From an uncultured Anaerolineales bacterium (GTDB lineage Bacteria; Chloroflexota; Anaerolineae; Anaerolineales; UBA11858): 64,000 nt of DNA. Below, piece by piece: positions 2,286 to 50,187 of this stretch. The translations under genes were made by a program, and so were the position numbers. The DNA lies in the NCBI GenBank assembly GCA_964458115.1, contig CAYWIC010000002.1, forward strand, positions 5,936 through 69,935, read 5' to 3'. The notes beneath the pieces were generated by a model. It was not told the origin of the DNA and ran no database searches. It saw nothing but the letters and a program-made list of their open reading frames with translations. Positions within the stretch are counted from its first letter, which is position 1, and every line of letters begins with the position of its first letter.

Positions 2286-3389
2286 ATGAGTCGATTATTA
2301 GAACATCAACAAGCCTTATATGAACTACGCTTCTCACCGATGTGCAGACCGGCCGCCGAAGTAGCCAACTTCACGCAGCTAGAGAGCCACTCTGTGCGCT
2401 CCCGCACGATGATCATGTGGCGAGTTTGCGCCGGCCACCTGACATGGGGGCCGCGTGAAGTGGAGCTTCTTTATGAATCCACATTGGACAGCATCAGCGA
2501 AGCCTTCGATGTATTCCATTACCCCGTTAGCCAGTATATGCTGGACGCCCGGGCGGATGTTTGGGAAGCGGGGTTGGCCCCACAGAATGTAAAGGATGTC
2601 GTAAGCAGCGCATCCGAGAAATCGGTTGACGCGCTACCCAAAGCCAGCGCAGATGTGCTGCTGCTGGGCGGTGAGATCGCCCAAGCGGAAGGGGCTGACT
2701 TTTCGGAGACGCTCACTAATAAATTGCCTGATATTCCTCTTTGGGTTACCCCAAGCGGCGTGCTGCCTTATGTCCTGGGCGCTCAAGATATCGCCAGGGC
2801 GCAGGCCGAGGTGATCGTAAATGGCATCCAGGAATCGGGTGCCAAAACGGTCATCGCCGATGGACCTGAAACCGCCTGGGGATTGACGAAAGTATTTCCC
2901 ACGCTAGGTGTTGACCTGCCCAATGGCGTGCAAGTGCAATTGCTATCGGACTATCTTGAGAAGAATGTGGAGGTCAAGAGTAAAGGTACTGTCAAAACGA
3001 TGGTGCATGACAGCCGTCCGGCTTGTCTGATTGCCGATGAACTGCCCAATCACCTGGCCGTGATGCCTGGCTATCTTGAAGATGAAGCTGTGTTTGGCAA
3101 GGGTCTGGTTTTCGACGCTCCCCGGCAGATCGTTGATGCCCTGGGTGGGGAAAGGGTGTATGGTGCCTGGACGCGTTGTCTGGCGAAAACTTGCGGCGCG
3201 GATGACGGGTTATGGCTGACTTATCCTGACCTGGCCAAGGGCTTAGCCTGGCAGCGGTTGGCTTATGCCAAAGAGCTGGGGGCCGAGAAGATCGTCGCCG
3301 ATTCGCCATTGTGCGCGGCATATTTGTCTGCTCAGGCTGGTGAAGATGATCCCGCAGTTTATTGGCTGCCAGAATTGGTTTTGGCATAG
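2286..3389 (+). CDS. GlcF/HdrD-like (Fe-S)-binding/CCG-domain protein with most Cys ligands substituted
   Basis: Degenerate ferredoxin motifs (LRFSPMCRPAAE; YESTLDSISEAFD) and CCG remnants (HDSRPAC, KTCGADDG, ADSPLC). Directly follows the FAD oxidase. Confidence 0.7.
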   Translation: MSRLLEHQQALYELRFSPMCRPAAEVANFTQLESHSVRSRTMIMWRVCAGHLTWGPREVELLYESTLDSISEAFDVFHYPVSQYMLDARADVWEAGLAPQNVKDVVSSASEKSVDALPKASADVLLLGGEIAQAEGADFSETLTNKLPDIPLWVTPSGVLPYVLGAQDIARAQAEVIVNGIQESGAKTVIADGPETAWGLTKVFPTLGVDLPNGVQVQLLSDYLEKNVEVKSKGTVKTMVHDSRPACLIADELPNHLAVMPGYLEDEAVFGKGLVFDAPRQIVDALGGERVYGAWTRCLAKTCGADDGLWLTYPDLAKGLAWQRLAYAKELGAEKIVADSPLCAAYLSAQAGEDDPAVYWLPELVLA

Positions 3390-18909: not shown

Positions 18910-20874
18910 TTATGGGTAATATATGCCAATAATTTCGGTTTCAGCCAAAGCTTTACCTCGAATTGCCTGCTTGAGAGGGATTTTCATCACGCCATCCTCT
19001 AGATCGAGGGTTGTGTCCAGCGCATAAAGCCTAAAGCGATATTGGTGGGATTTGGGAGGCGGGCAGGGGCCCATGTAGCCCAGGGCCAAGCGATTGTTTG
19101 TGCCGTGTTGACTGCCGTCGTCAAAATGCGCTGATGGTGGAACTCCCTCTGGAAGAGAGCGGGTATCAGGGGGAATGTTGAATAGCAGCCAGTGTGTGAG
19201 ATTATCATCGGCGGAGAGATCCTCAACGACGAGAACGAGGCTCGCGGTACCATCAGGGGGCTCTCCCCACTCGAGGGGTGGAGAAATATCCTTGTCGTCG
19301 CAGGTATAGGTGACGGGGATTACTTCCCCATCTCCGAAAGCCGGGCTGCTTATCTGGAAAACGGATGGATCAGTGATTGATGTGGTATCAGAAGATTCTG
19401 TATCCAAAGGGATTTCGTACATGTGCCCTGCGCCGCCTTCGACATAATCTTCGTCGTAGAATGAAGCGAAAACCTGGATTTGCTCTTCGCCAGTACAATG
19501 AGCGGGTGTTATTTTTCCGACATCCATCCCGCGGAAAAGCCCGGCGATGTCACGCACAGAATCTGCGGCCATTCCCCCAAGATGGAAGCCACCCATCACC
19601 CAGGCGATATCATCATCGAAAAGGCTCTTGGTTTTTCGTACCATGCTCAAGATGCCGGGATGCGCGCAGCCGGTGATGAGCACTACCCCCTGTTCTGTCT
19701 GGATGATCAAACCTTGCTCAGGGATCGTGCTGCCAAGCTGCCCAGTTGAGTATATTCCTGGAACAATTTCGATATGTTCGCTGACAGTCACCAGGTCCGT
19801 CTTTGCCCGGATACTATTTTTGATATTTTCTGGGAAGGATTCAGGTGCATAGACAGGAGGCGTGATCCCCAAATCCAATACTTCGTCCAATCCTCCGATA
19901 TGATCGAGATGTTCGTGGGAGAGCACGACGATATCGACCTCAGTCAGATCAATTCCCAAAATCTCAGCATTTCCTTTGAGAATCTCCCCGTTGTGACCTG
20001 TATCAAAAAGGATGGAATGCTCCCCGGTCTCTATCAATGCGGAGAAACCCCAATCAGAGGTCAGGCGAGTGTCGAAACTGGTGTTGTCATATAGGTAAGT
20101 GATGCGTATCGGTTGCACCCCACTCGCTTCGATAGCCTTCTCTTCCAATAGAGTTTGCAATATGGTCTCGCCAAATTCCCTTGATGTCGGTGGCCCCCCG
20201 GCGGTGATGATATTCCCATCTCTCTCGACGCGCGCTTTGGTACAGGTTGCTCCATTGGCTTCGAGAATACTGCATGTATCAGCGGGATTCACCATGGTGG
20301 CGTTTTTGCCCTCTAAGATGCCCGCTTCAACCAGAATCCTGACCCCGTTACAGATCGCGGCCACAACGATATTCTCATCCAGCGCCCTGTGAATAAGATC
20401 GTGGACTTCTTCTGATCTTGTGTAGTATAAAGGGTTGTCGAGAGAGCCAACGAAAATGATGGCATCATAATCGGCTGGGTTAGCTTCTGTGAGGATTAAA
20501 CTGGGTTTCACTTTCGTCGCCCCATCCAAGCCAGTGATTTGCTCCAAACTCGGCCCGCCAACAAAAACACGATACCCCGCGGCCTCGAGCAATTTGCGAG
20601 GTGCGCCGTACTCTGTGGTTTCAAAACCGGAGCTGACAGTCATCAACACGCTGCAGGTTCGCTCATCCGAAGGTTGGCATTGAGGAATTGGTGTTGGGCT
20701 TGACTGGATTGTTCTTGTGGGTGTTGGAGAAATGGTGCTTGTTAATGTTGGGTGAGGCGTTGACGTATTTGGTGCAATTTCAGTATTGGCGGAGGGATTG
20801 GTTGTGACATTGGCACTCGTGCAGCCGGACGTCAATATTAGGATTGTTGATAACAGAATGAGAATTTTCTGCAT
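18910..20874 (-). CDS. Lipoprotein fusion: DJ-1/PfpI + MBL-fold hydrolase + YbhB/YbcL (PEBP) domain
   Basis: Lipobox TSGC; DJ-1 motifs GFETTE and AICNG; MBL SHEHLDH/TGCAH/GGFHL/HCTG; PEBP SPPLEW, THW, YMGPCPP, HQYRF. Confidence 0.85.
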   Translation of the reverse strand: MQKILILLSTILILTSGCTSANVTTNPSANTEIAPNTSTPHPTLTSTISPTPTRTIQSSPTPIPQCQPSDERTCSVLMTVSSGFETTEYGAPRKLLEAAGYRVFVGGPSLEQITGLDGATKVKPSLILTEANPADYDAIIFVGSLDNPLYYTRSEEVHDLIHRALDENIVVAAICNGVRILVEAGILEGKNATMVNPADTCSILEANGATCTKARVERDGNIITAGGPPTSREFGETILQTLLEEKAIEASGVQPIRITYLYDNTSFDTRLTSDWGFSALIETGEHSILFDTGHNGEILKGNAEILGIDLTEVDIVVLSHEHLDHIGGLDEVLDLGITPPVYAPESFPENIKNSIRAKTDLVTVSEHIEIVPGIYSTGQLGSTIPEQGLIIQTEQGVVLITGCAHPGILSMVRKTKSLFDDDIAWVMGGFHLGGMAADSVRDIAGLFRGMDVGKITPAHCTGEEQIQVFASFYDEDYVEGGAGHMYEIPLDTESSDTTSITDPSVFQISSPAFGDGEVIPVTYTCDDKDISPPLEWGEPPDGTASLVLVVEDLSADDNLTHWLLFNIPPDTRSLPEGVPPSAHFDDGSQHGTNNRLALGYMGPCPPPKSHQYRFRLYALDTTLDLEDGVMKIPLKQAIRGKALAETEIIGIYYP

Positions 20875-44859: not shown

Positions 44860-44920
44860 TTGACAATTTAGAAAAAACTAATAGAATTAGCTAAAACTAA
44901 TAATGTTAGAAAAAACTAAT
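44860..44920 (+). promoter_or_regulatory. Sigma70-like promoter with three 15-bp operator-like repeats
   Basis: TTGACA 44860-65, TAGAAT 44882-87; TTAG(AA/CT)AAAACTAAT at 44868, 44887, 44906 (19-bp period). Confidence 0.7.
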
Positions 44921-44932
44921 CATATTAGAAAT

Positions 44933-45568
44933 ATGACTGATGAATCTTCCCCCACAAGATTGACCCGCCGCCAGCGCAATCACGAAGCCATGAAACAGAC
45001 CATACTCGAGACGGCGCGCATGATCATGCGTGCTGAGGGTGTGGCTGCGCTGACCATCCAGGAACTGGCCCGCCGCCTCGAGATCCGCCCGCCCTCGCTG
45101 TACAACTATTTCAAGGGGAAGATGGATATCTACGATCACCTGTTTCGGCAGGGATTCGAGTTGTTTGCTAGGACCATGCAGGCGGTGGGAGATACATCAG
45201 AAACTTATTGGGATGATATGCGCCTGAGCATGGAGGCCTATATGAGTTTTGCCCAAGAAAACCCAGAGTTATTCCAGCTATGTTTTGAGCGCCACGTGCC
45301 TGGTTTCGAGCCCTCTGAGGAAAGTATGCAGGTTGCTAATCAAGCGCGCGAGATTTCAGCCACGCGGATTGCTGCTCTCATAGAAGGAGGTGATTTCGTC
45401 CCGCGAATACCCTTTGAAAAAATGTTTTATTTAGTTTTTGCGCTTATGCATGGGCTCACAGCCCTGCATCTGGCCAATGAGCCGCAGCTTCCCCAGGGTC
45501 AGGGCAGGTACGGCAGTTTGATTCCCGAGGCTGTTGAGGTTTTCGAAAAGGCCTGGAAATACGACTGA
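44933..45568 (+). CDS. TetR/AcrR family regulator (WHG-like C-terminus)
   Basis: GVAALTIQELARRLEIRPPSLYNYFKGK; ALMHGL. Confidence 0.92.
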   Translation: MTDESSPTRLTRRQRNHEAMKQTILETARMIMRAEGVAALTIQELARRLEIRPPSLYNYFKGKMDIYDHLFRQGFELFARTMQAVGDTSETYWDDMRLSMEAYMSFAQENPELFQLCFERHVPGFEPSEESMQVANQAREISATRIAALIEGGDFVPRIPFEKMFYLVFALMHGLTALHLANEPQLPQGQGRYGSLIPEAVEVFEKAWKYD

Positions 45569-45600
45569 CAAAATTATTGGTATGTATGGAGGTTACAGCA

Positions 45601-46188
45601 ATGTCCCGCATCAAAACAATCTCACCCGAAAATGCTTCTGGTGTGCGCCGATTTATGGTACGTATACTCAAGCGGCAATATGGTGGATTTCTCCCAGGGA
45701 TTATGAGGGTTGCATTAGTCGATATGAAAGTCGGCCGCCTAACGGGAAACATCTACCAGCATTTACATTTACGAAAGAACTCTCCGCTGACGCGCCTGCA
45801 GCGTGAGATGATCGCCACTGTTGTCAACGGGGTGATCGGCGGCGCGCCCTGACTGGGTTTGCATACGGCGGCAGTTCGCCGCCTCACTGGAGACGAACAC
45901 CTTTCTCACGAGTTTGCTACAACCTGGCCAACATACGATTTAAATCCCCAGACCAAAGCCATGTTAGCGTACGCCAAGAAACTGACCGAGATGCCAGCCT
46001 TTATCGACGACGCAGATATCGAAGATCTACGCACAACTGGATGGGATGAGGATGCCATCTATGAAGCCACCGCCCTGGTATCATTTTTCAACTATTCTGG
46101 TCGTATGGAAGCCGCCTCTGGCCTCCCGATGGATGAAGTTCCCGCGGATGCCAAGTTTGCTGAAGCAACCCCTGATAATCGCAATTAA
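45601..46188 (+). CDS. AhpD/peroxidase-related protein with in-frame TGA (probable selenocysteine, U84)
   Basis: ORFs 45577-45852 and 45859-46188 are in the same frame. The TGA at 45850-52 sits in REMIATVVNGVIGGAP-U-LGLH, aligning with family EmIAvvVS..NgCxYCxxxH. GGAGGT RBS precedes 45601. Confidence 0.8.
45853..45890 (+). promoter_or_regulatory. Putative bacterial SECIS element
   Basis: GGCGGC-AGTTC-GCCGCC stem-loop. The loop begins 20 nt after TGA and has G in its second position. Confidence 0.6.
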
Positions 46189-46216: not shown

Positions 46217-46270
46217 GTGAAAAAATAGGCGTGTGCGGCGCTTTGCGCCAGCAAGCACCTATTTTTTCAC
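46217..46270. repeat. Long intergenic palindrome (family A, copy 7)
   Basis: GTGAAAAAATAGG...GGCGC-TTT-GCGCC...CCTATTTTTTCAC between convergent genes; may also terminate transcription. Confidence 0.88.
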
Positions 46271-47275: not shown

Positions 47276-48477
47276 CTATGTCGATTCAGCCCAACGCACG
47301 ACGATTAGGGACAGCCCAGACAGAACTGTAATCCCTAGGATTAATGGCAGAATCGTGCCATCGTAGCTTCGCCCGATAATCGTGCCAAGCGGCATCTGTA
47401 TCAGGGTCGAAAGCGAACCAACCACGGCAGAACCAATTCCTGCAAGGTGGCCCAAGGGCTCCATGGCCAGTGAATTCTGGTTGCCAAAAAGAACTCCGAC
47501 ACAAAAGAAGGTCAACATCAGGTAACTCATTGGGAACCATAAGGGAGGTTGGATGATCCAAAATGTCATCAGCCCTAAGGCAGTCAGCGATAAACCAAAA
47601 ATAAGGGTCAGGGACCAATTCACCAGGAAACGCATCCCAAAGCGTATCACCAGGCGTGAGTTCGAGAAAGACGCCAGCCCGAGTGAGAATGCAATGATCG
47701 CAAAGATGAGGGGGAAGCGATCTCCCAGGGCATACTGTTCCTGAAAAATTTGTTGAGCAGAATTGAGGTAGCCAAGAAACGCGCCGCCAATCAGACCAGC
47801 CGACACGGTATAGCCTATTGCGGTTCGTATGTTCAAGATTTCAAGGGTTGCTTTGACAATGCGCTGCAGTGAGAAGGGTGCGCGGTGCTCTTGGGCCAGA
47901 GTTTCTGGCATACGTAGTGCGAACCAGGCCAGTGTGATCAGCGCGATCAGCACAAAGCTAACGAAGATCCCTCGCCATCCCGAAAACACCATGACCGCCT
48001 GCCCCAATGATGGTGCCAACATCGGGACAAGGATGAAGACAGTCATGACGAAGGACATTACCCGGGCCATTGCTCGACCTTCATACCGATCCCGTACCAG
48101 AGCCAATATCACTGAGCGAGGTGCTGAAACCCCTACTCCCTGCAAAAGCCTCCCTGCGAGCATCATTGGAAAATTGGATGCAAATATTGATAAGCAGGCG
48201 CCAGCTATATATATGGCATACCCAGCGATACCGCAGGTTTGCGCCCTGTTTTATCTGAAAGCGGCCCAAAGAATACCTGACCAATGGCTAATCCCAAGAA
48301 AATTGTCGAAACGATTAGTTGCCGGTCATTGGTATTCTGAATGCCCAGATCGCTACCAATTTGAGCCAGAGCTGGCAGCATGGCATCGATGGATAAGGCG
48401 GTGAGCGACATCATCAACGAAATGATGATGACAAATTCAGTGAAGGAAGTTTTTGATTGATGAATTTTTAGTTTCAT
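47276..48477 (-). pseudogene. Bcr/CflA multidrug-efflux MFS transporter, frameshifted
   Basis: The N-terminal part (SIDAMLPAL...GPLSDKTGRKP) and the rest (AGRLLQGVG...) are joined by a 1-nt deletion at about 48227. Confidence 0.85.
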
Positions 48478-48492: not shown

Positions 48493-48849
48493 TTATTGGG
48501 CGTTGCTTTCTTCATGCAAAAGGTCTATGGTCTCCACAGCGTGACGCAAGTGGGGGATAACGATGCTGCCCCCGACTAATAAGGCGACATTGAGCGCGTC
48601 GTACAACTCTTCATCACTCCAACCAATTTCAATGCATTGATCGAGATGATAGTCGATGCAGTCGTTGCAGCGCAAAACAGCGGAGGCCACCAGTCCGAGC
48701 AGCTCCTTGGTTTTTGCATCCAAGGCGCTGTCGCGGTATGCGGCTGTATCCAGGTTGAAGAAGCGCTTGATGCCCAGGTGATCGATCTCGGAAATGCGCT
48801 CGTTCATTTTCTGGCGGTAAGCTCGGAATTCATCCAGTCGGTTTGTCAT
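48493..48849 (-). CDS. Carboxymuconolactone decarboxylase / AhpD family protein (Cys form)
   Basis: LDAKTKELLGLVASAVLRCNDCIDYH. Confidence 0.88.
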   Translation of the reverse strand: MTNRLDEFRAYRQKMNERISEIDHLGIKRFFNLDTAAYRDSALDAKTKELLGLVASAVLRCNDCIDYHLDQCIEIGWSDEELYDALNVALLVGGSIVIPHLRHAVETIDLLHEESNAQ

Positions 48850-48948: not shown

Positions 48949-50187
48949 CTATTTTGTTGCAGAACGGCCAGCCAGCCAGCCGGTTGAGAAGGCGGCTTGC
49001 AGGTTATAACCACCCGTGTCGGCATCGACATCCAGAACTTCGCCCGCGAAATAGAGCCCCTCGACCAGACGTGAACTCATTGTTTTGGGATCAACCTCAC
49101 GCAAGTCAACGCCCCCGGCCGTGACGATGGCCTGGTTGAATTTGCGGTGATCTTTGATATCCAAACGGAAATCTTTGAGCCATTTTCGGAGGCGTTTTCG
49201 TTCGGCCGCGCTGATCTGATGGCCAGCTTTTTCGGCGGAGATGTCTGTCTGTTGGATGCACACCGGGATGAGGGTTTTTGGCAACAGCTCTTTGAGGATG
49301 GTCTTGTACCGCTTGTTGCTGAAGGTTTTGAGATCGCGTAGCAAGCGGGCATCGAGTTTGCCCTCGTCCAGGGCTGGTTTGAGGTCGATGGATAGGGCGA
49401 CTTTCTTTTTGGCTCGCAACGAGTCAACTACCCCGCGACTGAGTGTCAGGATGATGGGGCCTGAGACTCCAAAGTGGGTGAAGAGCATTTCGCCGAAAGC
49501 GGTGGCGGTTTTCTTGCCGTCCGTCCAGACTATGACCCGGACATTTCGCAGGCTGAGACCCTGGAGTTGCTTGGCGATATTCCCAGCCGTAACTAAGGGA
49601 ACTAATGCAGGTCGAATAGGTACAATCGCATGCCCTGCATGTTGTGCGAAGGTATAGCCATCCCCTGTGGAGCCTGTGCCTGGATAAGAAGCACCGCCAG
49701 TGGCGATGATGACAGAGTCCGCATCGAGTTGAGTATGTTCTGTTCTGACTCCAACCACGCGCTCCTCATTGATCACGATCTCTTGCGCGGGTGATTGGGT
49801 CCAAATTTTGACTCCCTCGCGCGTGGCCCAATTGACCAGAGCATTGACTACGTCCGAGGAGAGTCCACTGGCGGGGAAGACACGCCCGCCGCGTTCCGTT
49901 ATCGTATTGACGCCTAAATCGTGGATAAAGGCCAGTAAATCATCAGAGAAGTAGCGATGGAAAGCCTGCCGCAAAAAGCGCCCGTTGCGACCAAAATGCT
50001 CGATGAACTCGTTGATGGGGGCAACATTGGTGATATTGCAGCGGCCTTTGCCGCTAATGAAGAGCTTACGGCCGGGTGAATCCATTTTTTCGAGCAGAGT
50101 GACCCTGGCCCCAAACATGGCAGCCTGACCGGCGGCCATCAGACCTGCTGGCCCGCCGCCGATTACGATGATCTGGCGATGTGACAT
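48949..50187 (-). CDS. HI0933/YhiN/BaiN family NAD(P)/FAD-dependent oxidoreductase
   Basis: GGGPAG, ISGKGRCNITN, GRVFP, ATGGASYP..GSTGDGY, GGYNLQAA. Confidence 0.93.
   Translation of the reverse strand: MSHRQIIVIGGGPAGLMAAGQAAMFGARVTLLEKMDSPGRKLFISGKGRCNITNVAPINEFIEHFGRNGRFLRQAFHRYFSDDLLAFIHDLGVNTITERGGRVFPASGLSSDVVNALVNWATREGVKIWTQSPAQEIVINEERVVGVRTEHTQLDADSVIIATGGASYPGTGSTGDGYTFAQHAGHAIVPIRPALVPLVTAGNIAKQLQGLSLRNVRVIVWTDGKKTATAFGEMLFTHFGVSGPIILTLSRGVVDSLRAKKKVALSIDLKPALDEGKLDARLLRDLKTFSNKRYKTILKELLPKTLIPVCIQQTDISAEKAGHQISAAERKRLRKWLKDFRLDIKDHRKFNQAIVTAGGVDLREVDPKTMSSRLVEGLYFAGEVLDVDADTGGYNLQAAFSTGWLAGRSATK

Follow-up and report, generated by a model that had tools for sequence, protein, structure and literature searches.

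Positions 45601-46188 of a 64-kb stretch of DNA from an uncultured marine Anaerolineales bacterium (the whole stretch that was analysed, hereafter the window) form, on the forward strand, a single frame that opens with an ATG (45601), closes with a TAA (46186-46188) and is interrupted by a lone in-frame TGA at codon 84 (45850-45852). An earlier note, made from the sequence alone, had described two open reading frames (ORFs) in the same frame parted only by this TGA, and had claimed that the read-through protein is devoid of cysteine. Direct reading of the sequence bears out both points: the layout is as described, and the product of 45601-46188 is a protein of 195 residues with zero cysteine residues. 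The evidence favors, with a probability of roughly 0.8, the reading that the locus is one real selenoprotein gene, and not two ORFs, and that it encodes an AhpD-like enzyme with a single selenocysteine (Sec, U). The features that this reading draws upon are the following, all on the forward (+) strand.

45588-45592, +: Shine-Dalgarno sequence GGAGG, 8 nt 5' of the ATG, read directly from the sequence
45601-46188, +: putative complete selenoprotein gene, 195 codons including UGA-84 and then TAA; AhpD-like, TIGR01926 peroxidase-related enzyme (hidden Markov model, alignment and fold model)
45805-45807, +: codon of Glu69, 12 residues before position 81; invariant in 94/94 homologs
45841-45843, +: codon of Gly81, which replaces the resolving Cys at the start of CxxC (aligned without gaps to 3c1l, 2oyo, 6k40 and 2pfx; Gly in 94/94 homologs)
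45850-45852, +: UGA, predicted Sec codon 84, in place of the second Cys of CxxC (TGA in 94/94 homologs; TGC in six more distant relatives)
45862-45864, +: codon of His88 (Sec+4), the conserved active-site His of the family (invariant in 94/94 homologs; aligned to the His of CxxCxxxH)
45867-45883, +: candidate selenocysteine insertion sequence (SECIS) hairpin, 6-bp stem GGCGGC/GCCGCC and 5-nt loop AGUUC (comparative pairing and frozen synonymous sites)

Standard annotation splits the gene, as the earlier note had foreseen. The ORF finder breaks it into 45577-45852 and 45859-46188, and public gene calls on an identical contig (L082) make the same break, into proteins of 88 and 109 residues. Two independent metagenome assemblies (ENA ERZ23498658 and JGI 3300009128) carry the 588-nt gene without a single base difference, and a sequencing error is therefore excluded. 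The identical locus was found on short metagenome contigs only (up to 9 kb). The LigA protein of the host is 92% identical to that of the metagenome-assembled genome (MAG) CAYTKR01, the closest in the species-representative collection.

Homologs of the gene were gathered by scanning GTDB with a single genome for each species, which gave 80 loci, and by a second scan seeded with Cys forms, which added more. A TGA is present at exactly this codon in 94/94 distinct close homologs (81/81 in the first set), which span 12 or more phyla, including Calditrichota, KSB1, Gemmatimonadota, Actinomycetota (many of them Rubrobacteraceae), Acidobacteriota, Chloroflexota, Bacillota, Desulfobacterota, Bacteroidota/Ignavibacteriales, Myxococcota, NC10, Verrucomicrobiota and Eiseniibacteriota. 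The best match in the species-representative collection is at 76%, and the mean identity of the homologs to the window protein is 56% upstream of the TGA and 69% downstream. Cuts at locus ends aside, one shortened copy (a stop 53 codons past the TGA) is noted among 93 homologs. The site is TGC in six more distant relatives, which belong to the Dormibacterota, Chloroflexota, Ktedonobacterales and Gaiellaceae. The earlier note had advised a homolog search for TGA or TGY at this codon together with the downstream hairpin, and had named close homologs with TGC or TGT and no hairpin as the outcome that would speak against a selenoprotein; the opposite was found, with TGA and the hairpin in the close homologs and TGC without the hairpin in the more distant ones. 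A conserved in-frame UGA at the second Cys position, accompanied by Cys homologs, is likewise the pattern of the AhpD-like selenoproteins of the literature. The homolog searches indicate a distinct branch, termed GxxU here for the Gly three residues before Sec, that is widespread in public genomes (94 distinct genes).

Certain copies of the gene depart from the common form or are otherwise distinctive. A Rubrobacter-like homolog on four metagenome contigs (e.g., L133 2199-2801 and L134 115-717) has TTA (Leu) at the Sec codon, retains the downstream hairpin with a compensated A-U pair and has a DDE transposase gene nearby; this copy may be recently inactivated. The one shortened copy is that of a Myxococcales MAG (L063, CP070650.1, TGA at 3250), possibly as the result of pseudogenization or misassembly. 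A 95-residue protein fragment of the branch (P0137) has Arg at the Sec position (..NGAP-R-LGMH.., protein sequence). A Gemmatimonadota MAG has two gene copies about 3 kb apart (L058, TGA at 3250 and 6319; the same contig as L114), both with the TGA and the hairpin. The gene is also carried by a cultured isolate, Neobacillus massiliamazoniensis LF1 (L052, NZ_CVRB01000006.1, TGA at 3250), in which the hairpin is compensated (AACGGC/GCCGUU); this carrier permits direct testing of the gene.

The homolog data bear on the simplest alternative, namely that the locus is a nonsense pseudogene, or a sequencing or assembly error, in a Cys-type AhpD-like gene that makes no full-length protein. Such an origin would explain why a gene is split by a single in-frame stop, would sit well with a window that has no Sec machinery, and has a parallel in the shortened homolog and in the homolog with Leu at the site. 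It is at odds with a gene that is identical in two independent assemblies, with a TGA held at the same codon in 94/94 homologs from 12 or more phyla between conserved flanks that have no other stops, and with a constraint on the synonymous sites of the hairpin that is seen in the TGA forms only. The comparative data effectively refute this alternative, which is left with a negligible probability.

Protein searches return full-length matches, many with 'W' at position 84, together with many proteins of 107-114 residues that comprise the C-terminal half only. The latter, dozens of which are named 'alkylhydroperoxidase family' in the databases, read as the signature of a family that is routinely cut at its Sec codon; the gene is thus missed or halved by standard callers. 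The 'W' entries raise the possibility that UGA-84 is read in another way, either as a sense codon (Trp or Gly in an alternative code) or as a true stop, with polypeptides of 83 and 109 residues (the latter from TTG 45859) that co-assemble. The TTG start offered by the ORF finder 6 nt past the TGA agrees with the second version. Against the first, TGA is an ordinary stop in the carriers, in that the upstream TetR gene ends on TGA as do the genes of 60/91 homologs, and so the code is standard and an alternative genetic code is not the explanation; one 'W' database entry was traced to its DNA, where the codon is TGA, rendered as W by the gene caller. Against the second, the residue that follows the gap varies among Leu, Met and Phe, a conserved start and a ribosome-binding site are both lacking, and homologs in which the site is Cys form one continuous chain. 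Neither version explains why a hairpin whose loop GU is invariant should be conserved at the distance of a SECIS, and another reading of the UGA is thus highly improbable.

The hairpin (GGCGGC-AGTTC-GCCGCC) lies 14-31 nt past the TGA, with its loop starting 20 nt past the UGA, and the earlier note had taken it for a SECIS. Bacterial SECIS elements reportedly follow a consensus of distance and loop criteria set out by Zhang and Gladyshev, and the hairpin agrees with it in stem, loop G and distance from the UGA. Across the branch the consensus is GGCGGC-NGUNC-GYCGCC, in which GU at loop positions 2-3 is invariant; a conserved G in the bacterial SECIS loop is stated in PMC1088965. Folding of the window sequence gives -13.0 kcal/mol (z = -3.6) in a 27-nt context, and is not significant for the 61 nt after the UGA as a single sequence (z = -1.4). 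With single-sequence folding this weak, the case for a SECIS rests on comparative data. A gap-free alignment of 81 sequences, covering 60 nt from the UGA onward, shows pairing in 98.1% of cells for the six proposed pairs, versus 32-76% with slid partners. Compensatory stem variants include AACGGC/GCCGUU, GACGGC/GCCGUC and, in one homolog (L108), GUCGGC/GCCGAC. GCG is the stem Ala codon in 83/83 cases, against a share of 36% for Ala in the remainder of these genes (p = 7e-36), and the two stem Arg codons are CGC or CGU in 93/93 and 92/93 versus 46% elsewhere (p about 1e-30), with the sole exception being the compensating CGA of L108. Free variation is seen at the wobble sites that adjoin the stem and at two positions of the loop. 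The six TGC relatives keep the peptide EA(V/L/M)RRL, use CGG/CGA codons and have lost the hairpin. These comparisons indicate that the hairpin is under RNA-level selection and behaves as a bacterial SECIS inside the coding sequence, as the earlier note had claimed. Near-identical in nucleotides over 12 or more phyla and overlapping the codons of AAVRRL, the element would be a clear-cut example of a sequence that codes for protein and RNA at once.

Several observations weigh against a Sec enzyme at this locus. With E. coli SelA, SelB and SelD as tblastn queries, neither the 64-kb window nor the homolog loci gave a match at E <= 1e-3; no tRNA of any kind, including tRNA-Sec, was found in the window by ARAGORN; and a gathering scan of the window gave no Rfam match. 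True double compensatory changes in the hairpin are few (6 cells in 2 pairs), and the hairpin nucleotides also encode the conserved T-A-A-V-R-R-L, such that their conservation is partly protein-driven. One natural variant has Leu (TTA) at the Sec codon. No AhpC/peroxiredoxin, thioredoxin or lipoamide gene recurs as a neighbor among the 80 loci; thus, it is the family resemblance that speaks for a peroxide-related role. Support for Sec throughout the GxxU branch, moreover, stays at the level of sequence. Set against these points is the conservation of UGA and hairpin across phyla, because of which it is judged very likely indeed that UGA-84 is decoded as Sec, and the Anaerolineales organism of the window would presumably insert Sec at this position. 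A window scan for other ORF pairs joined by a TGA gave 26 candidates, none of which except that at 45850 appears coding-like on inspection of the flanking peptides.

The 195-residue protein, scored by hidden Markov models (HMMs) with Cys placed at position 84, matches the NCBIfam family TIGR01926 ('peroxidase-related enzyme') at 94.5 bits (cut-off 81.8) over residues 28-176, and the Pfam carboxymuconolactone decarboxylase (CMD) domain at 25.2 (cut-off 23). A more specific selenoprotein model is not found in NCBIfam release 20, in which the YciW-related (seleno)protein model reaches only 17 bits, and the same HMM search gave no TIGR00777 match. Sequence searches of the PDB return 3c1l, 2oyo, 6k40, 2pfx and 2prr (E of 1e-22 to 1e-11). 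An AlphaFold2 model of the full read-through protein is predicted with high confidence (predicted local distance difference test score 95.6, predicted template modelling score 0.91) to consist of nine helices, and residue 84 directly precedes helix 86-96 of this model. By Foldseek, the model matches the TIGR01926-type structures 3c1l, 6k40, 2pfx, 2oyo and 2prr at template modelling (TM) scores of 0.74-0.83, and also remoter CMD-fold proteins, including the debrominase Bmp8 (6ohj, 6ohi) at 0.67. The protein thus belongs to the AhpD/CMD fold and to the TIGR01926 family, as the earlier note had recognized, with a score above the HMM cut-off and the all-helical fold of about 180-200 residues.

The active site, by contrast, lacks one of the residues that define the family (Glu...CxxC...His with both Cys). 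In an ungapped alignment to the solved CxxC homologs (query VVNGVIGGAP-C-LGLH versus AVSSINHCYY-C-LTAH of 3c1l, ...NHCYYCLTAH...), Gly81 is matched with the first Cys, U84 with the second and His88 with the conserved His; thus, Glu69, residue 84 and His88 are present and the first Cys is Gly81. The C-terminal motif is FFNYSGR in place of the canonical FFNxxNR. The placement of U84 on the second Cys, the loss of the first Cys with no resolving Cys left, and the change of the C-terminal NR to GR had all been put forward by the earlier note, and each is upheld. Over the 94 genes the branch motif is R-E-M-L-A-T-V-V-N-G-K-V-G-G-A-P-U-L-G-L-H-T-A-A-V-R-R-L, in which Glu(-15), Gly(-3) and His(+4) relative to Sec are each invariant (94/94). 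Cysteine is absent from 82/93 proteins of the branch, and the remainder have one Cys at non-conserved places. The Cys-type relatives are likewise without the first Cys (G-A-K-P-C, G-G-S-C) or have C-S-C. When 1.84 billion representatives were searched, complete proteins of the branch reached 265-278 bits; the complete family members that come next, with at most 116 bits, are classical C-x-Y-C proteins, some of which show C-x-Y-W. This gap in scores sets the GxxU branch sharply apart from other members of the TIGR01926 family; NCBIfam holds no dedicated model for it.

Selenoproteins of this family are not new. AhpD-like selenoproteins (COG2128/TIGR01926, 'AhpD-like 1') with the motif CxxU were first reported from the Sargasso Sea in 2005 and ranked with the most abundant families of the Global Ocean Sampling (GOS) metagenomes (Zhang, Fomenko and Gladyshev (2005); Zhang and Gladyshev (2008); PMC1088965, PMC2398784), and a 2026 review lists the 'AhpD-like protein, TIGR01926, CxxU' (PMC13188914). 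The window gene shares with them the HMM family, the fold, a Sec at the second Cys, a SECIS-like hairpin just downstream within the coding sequence and the existence of Cys homologs. By contrast, the Cys three residues before Sec that defines the CxxU form is missing; the branch has G-A-P-U, with Gly(-3) in 94/94 and no conserved Cys. Sec forms also greatly outnumber Cys forms of the branch in species-representative genomes. No account of a GxxU form was found in the searchable literature, although such genes may have been counted as 'AhpD-like' in database surveys. A classical member was encountered in a marine metagenome (L216 29-583, P0181), where a C-F-Y-TGA motif has its TGA called as Trp by gene callers and is followed by a different hairpin (GACUUC-CGGGAU-GAAGUC) from that of the GxxU branch. 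As this sequence reads C-F-Y-TGA, classical CxxU AhpD-like selenoproteins are real and lie outside the GxxU branch. The statement of the earlier note that CxxU AhpD-like selenoproteins are known therefore holds, while the novelty that it had seen in the gene is to be scaled down, as the family is known and the gene is one of 94 distinct genes. The gene is, in sum, a GxxU variant within a family whose selenoproteins have been on record for two decades, and its missing partner Cys appears undescribed.

The closest relative with experimental data is DR1765 of Deinococcus radiodurans (PDB 6k40), a Cys protein; according to a review, its loss sensitizes cells to H2O2 and complementation needs the CxxC motif (PMC8945050). 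The window protein is similar to DR1765, 3c1l (Mlr4105), 2oyo, 2pfx and 2prr in sequence (28-34% identity), in fold (TM about 0.8) and in the REM...C...H framework. These relatives, by contrast, are Cys enzymes that have both Cys of CxxC and the motif FFNxxNR, versus FFNxSGR in the branch.

AhpD of Mycobacterium tuberculosis (TIGR00777; 1gu9) resembles the branch in having a Glu 12 residues before the first Cys position and a His 4 residues after the second; the spacing of Glu69 to position 81 equals that of Glu118 to Cys130 in this enzyme. Cys133 of M. tuberculosis AhpD, the second Cys, acts as the nucleophile on AhpC; the mixed disulfide that results is resolved by Cys130, and stays trapped when Cys130 is removed. 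By analogy, the GxxU branch would resemble a natural 'C130G' trapping form, one that needs an outside thiol. Unlike these parallels, the fold match to M. tuberculosis AhpD is remote (TM 0.35-0.43, E above 0.1), the window protein has no match to TIGR00777, and peroxiredoxins are not among the recurrent neighbors at the 80 loci. A further analogy may be drawn to the glutathione peroxidases and iodothyronine deiodinases, which also use a single Sec, have no intramolecular resolving Cys and are regenerated by external thiols. Their thioredoxin-like folds are unrelated to the all-helical AhpD/CMD fold, with no sequence relationship, and the likeness is of analogy only.

The gene is flanked upstream by a regulatory gene and downstream by a terminator-like hairpin, with the following coordinates.

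44860-44887, +: predicted promoter-like site TTGACA-16-TAGAAT (11 of 12; consensus match only)
44903-45568, +: TetR-family regulator gene, 221 residues, which ends on TGA as a true stop (Pfam TetR_N 39.4 bits, TetR_C_33 32.7 bits)
46218-46268, no strand assigned: long hairpin with an A-run on one side and a T-run on the other, probable bidirectional terminator (-33.2 kcal/mol, z = -4.3; 0/200 shuffles fold as well)

The TetR gene ends 32 nt before the selenoprotein start, with the Shine-Dalgarno sequence within this gap. The selenoprotein gene converges with a lactate/malate dehydrogenase gene, and the terminator-like hairpin occupies the space between the two; it was missed by a simple scan for terminators. 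Based on the strong promoter-like site before the TetR gene, the 32-nt gap and the hairpin after the selenoprotein gene, the two genes are probably co-transcribed as a two-gene operon; this layout suggests that the selenoprotein gene is probably under the control of the upstream TetR-family regulator, as the earlier note had proposed. Among the 80 homolog loci, the recurrent neighbors are a divergent TetR-family regulator (31/80), an unknown protein (16), a cupin (7) and an ODP-type metallo-beta-lactamase-fold protein (7). Orthology of the window TetR to the TetR neighbors elsewhere was considered and rejected, since the similarity is confined to the helix-turn-helix region. Other neighbors in the window include an intradiol-dioxygenase-like gene, a glyoxalase-fold gene and a major facilitator superfamily (MFS) transporter gene.

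In the proposed mechanism, UGA-84 would be decoded as Sec with the help of the hairpin at 45867-45883, and the Sec residue would be placed at the N-terminal end of helix 86-96, in the position of the nucleophilic second Cys, with Glu(-15) and His(+4) kept. Reaction of the selenolate with a peroxide or an oxidized partner thiol may then yield either a selenenic acid or a mixed selenenylsulfide, from which an external thiol (low-molecular-weight or of a partner protein) would recycle the Sec. As the first Cys is Gly and no other Cys is conserved, an intramolecular selenenylsulfide is not possible, and without an intramolecular partner the intermediate would be resolved by an external thiol. A one-Sec, external-thiol redox mechanism of this type is given about even odds; substrate, external reductant and TetR control are putative throughout. 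The near-exclusive use of Sec where the partner Cys is missing (94 TGA versus 6 TGC genes in species representatives) fits a role of selenium in protecting a lone redox residue from irreversible over-oxidation, and makes the branch a natural experiment on the choice of selenium versus sulfur.

Alternatively, the gene may encode a true selenoprotein that is not a peroxide or disulfide enzyme, in which the lone selenolate attacks a small molecule sensed by TetR, for example in reductive dehalogenation (the reaction type of Bmp8, a debrominase of the CMD fold, and of the deiodinases) or in the detoxification of electrophiles or metalloids. Several features are in line with this idea: (i) the Foldseek match to Bmp8 (6ohj, 6ohi; TM 0.67), (ii) the missing resolving Cys, together with the lack of a conserved AhpC/peroxiredoxin or thioredoxin neighbor, which leaves some room for a halogenated or electrophilic small-molecule substrate, itself an improbable one, (iii) the recurrence beside the gene of TetR-family regulators, which are usually small-molecule sensors, (iv) the intradiol-dioxygenase-like, glyoxalase-fold and MFS transporter genes of the window, and (v) the precedent of the deiodinases, single-Sec enzymes that are recycled by external thiols. 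The match to Bmp8 is, however, weak (18% identity, E about 1e-4) and well below the matches to the TIGR01926 structures, and bmp-like neighbors were not found. The enzyme retains the whole Glu/His relay of AhpD proteins of the peroxidase type, an H2O2 phenotype is on record for the one close relative that has been studied (PMC8945050), and no neighbor is conserved enough to indicate a substrate. Small-molecule chemistry is thus an unlikely role for the enzyme. The same low weight is given to the broader proposal that the GxxU branch is an undescribed class of the AhpD fold in which a lone Sec is obligatory for want of a resolving Cys and which, in place of peroxide removal, performs TetR-controlled nucleophilic or reductive chemistry on small molecules (dehalogenation, or detoxification of electrophiles or metalloids), a bacterial counterpart of the deiodinases on another fold. 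On this proposal, selenium would be retained by about 93% of the carrier species. The peroxidase-related, one-Sec AhpD-like enzyme is preferred here over these proposals.

A conventional CxxC AhpD gene had been placed 2.3 kb from the selenoprotein gene by the earlier note, and is present at 48493-48849 on the reverse (-) strand. This gene encodes a 118-residue AhpD-core-domain protein with a C-N-D-C motif (TIGR00778 36.1 bits versus cut-off 27.8), and adjoins the MFS gene and a gene for an HI0933-like flavoprotein (48949-50187). The MFS transporter gene (47276-48477, -) is itself in two frames, 48477-48205 (90 residues) and 48166-47276 (296 residues), both of which match PF07690. The same split is found in two independent contigs (L081 and L082), and hence reflects either a real frameshift or pseudogene or a two-piece gene. 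Farther away in the window, positions 18910-20874 (-) encode an unusual 654-residue fusion of DJ-1/PfpI, metallo-beta-lactamase and PEBP domains.

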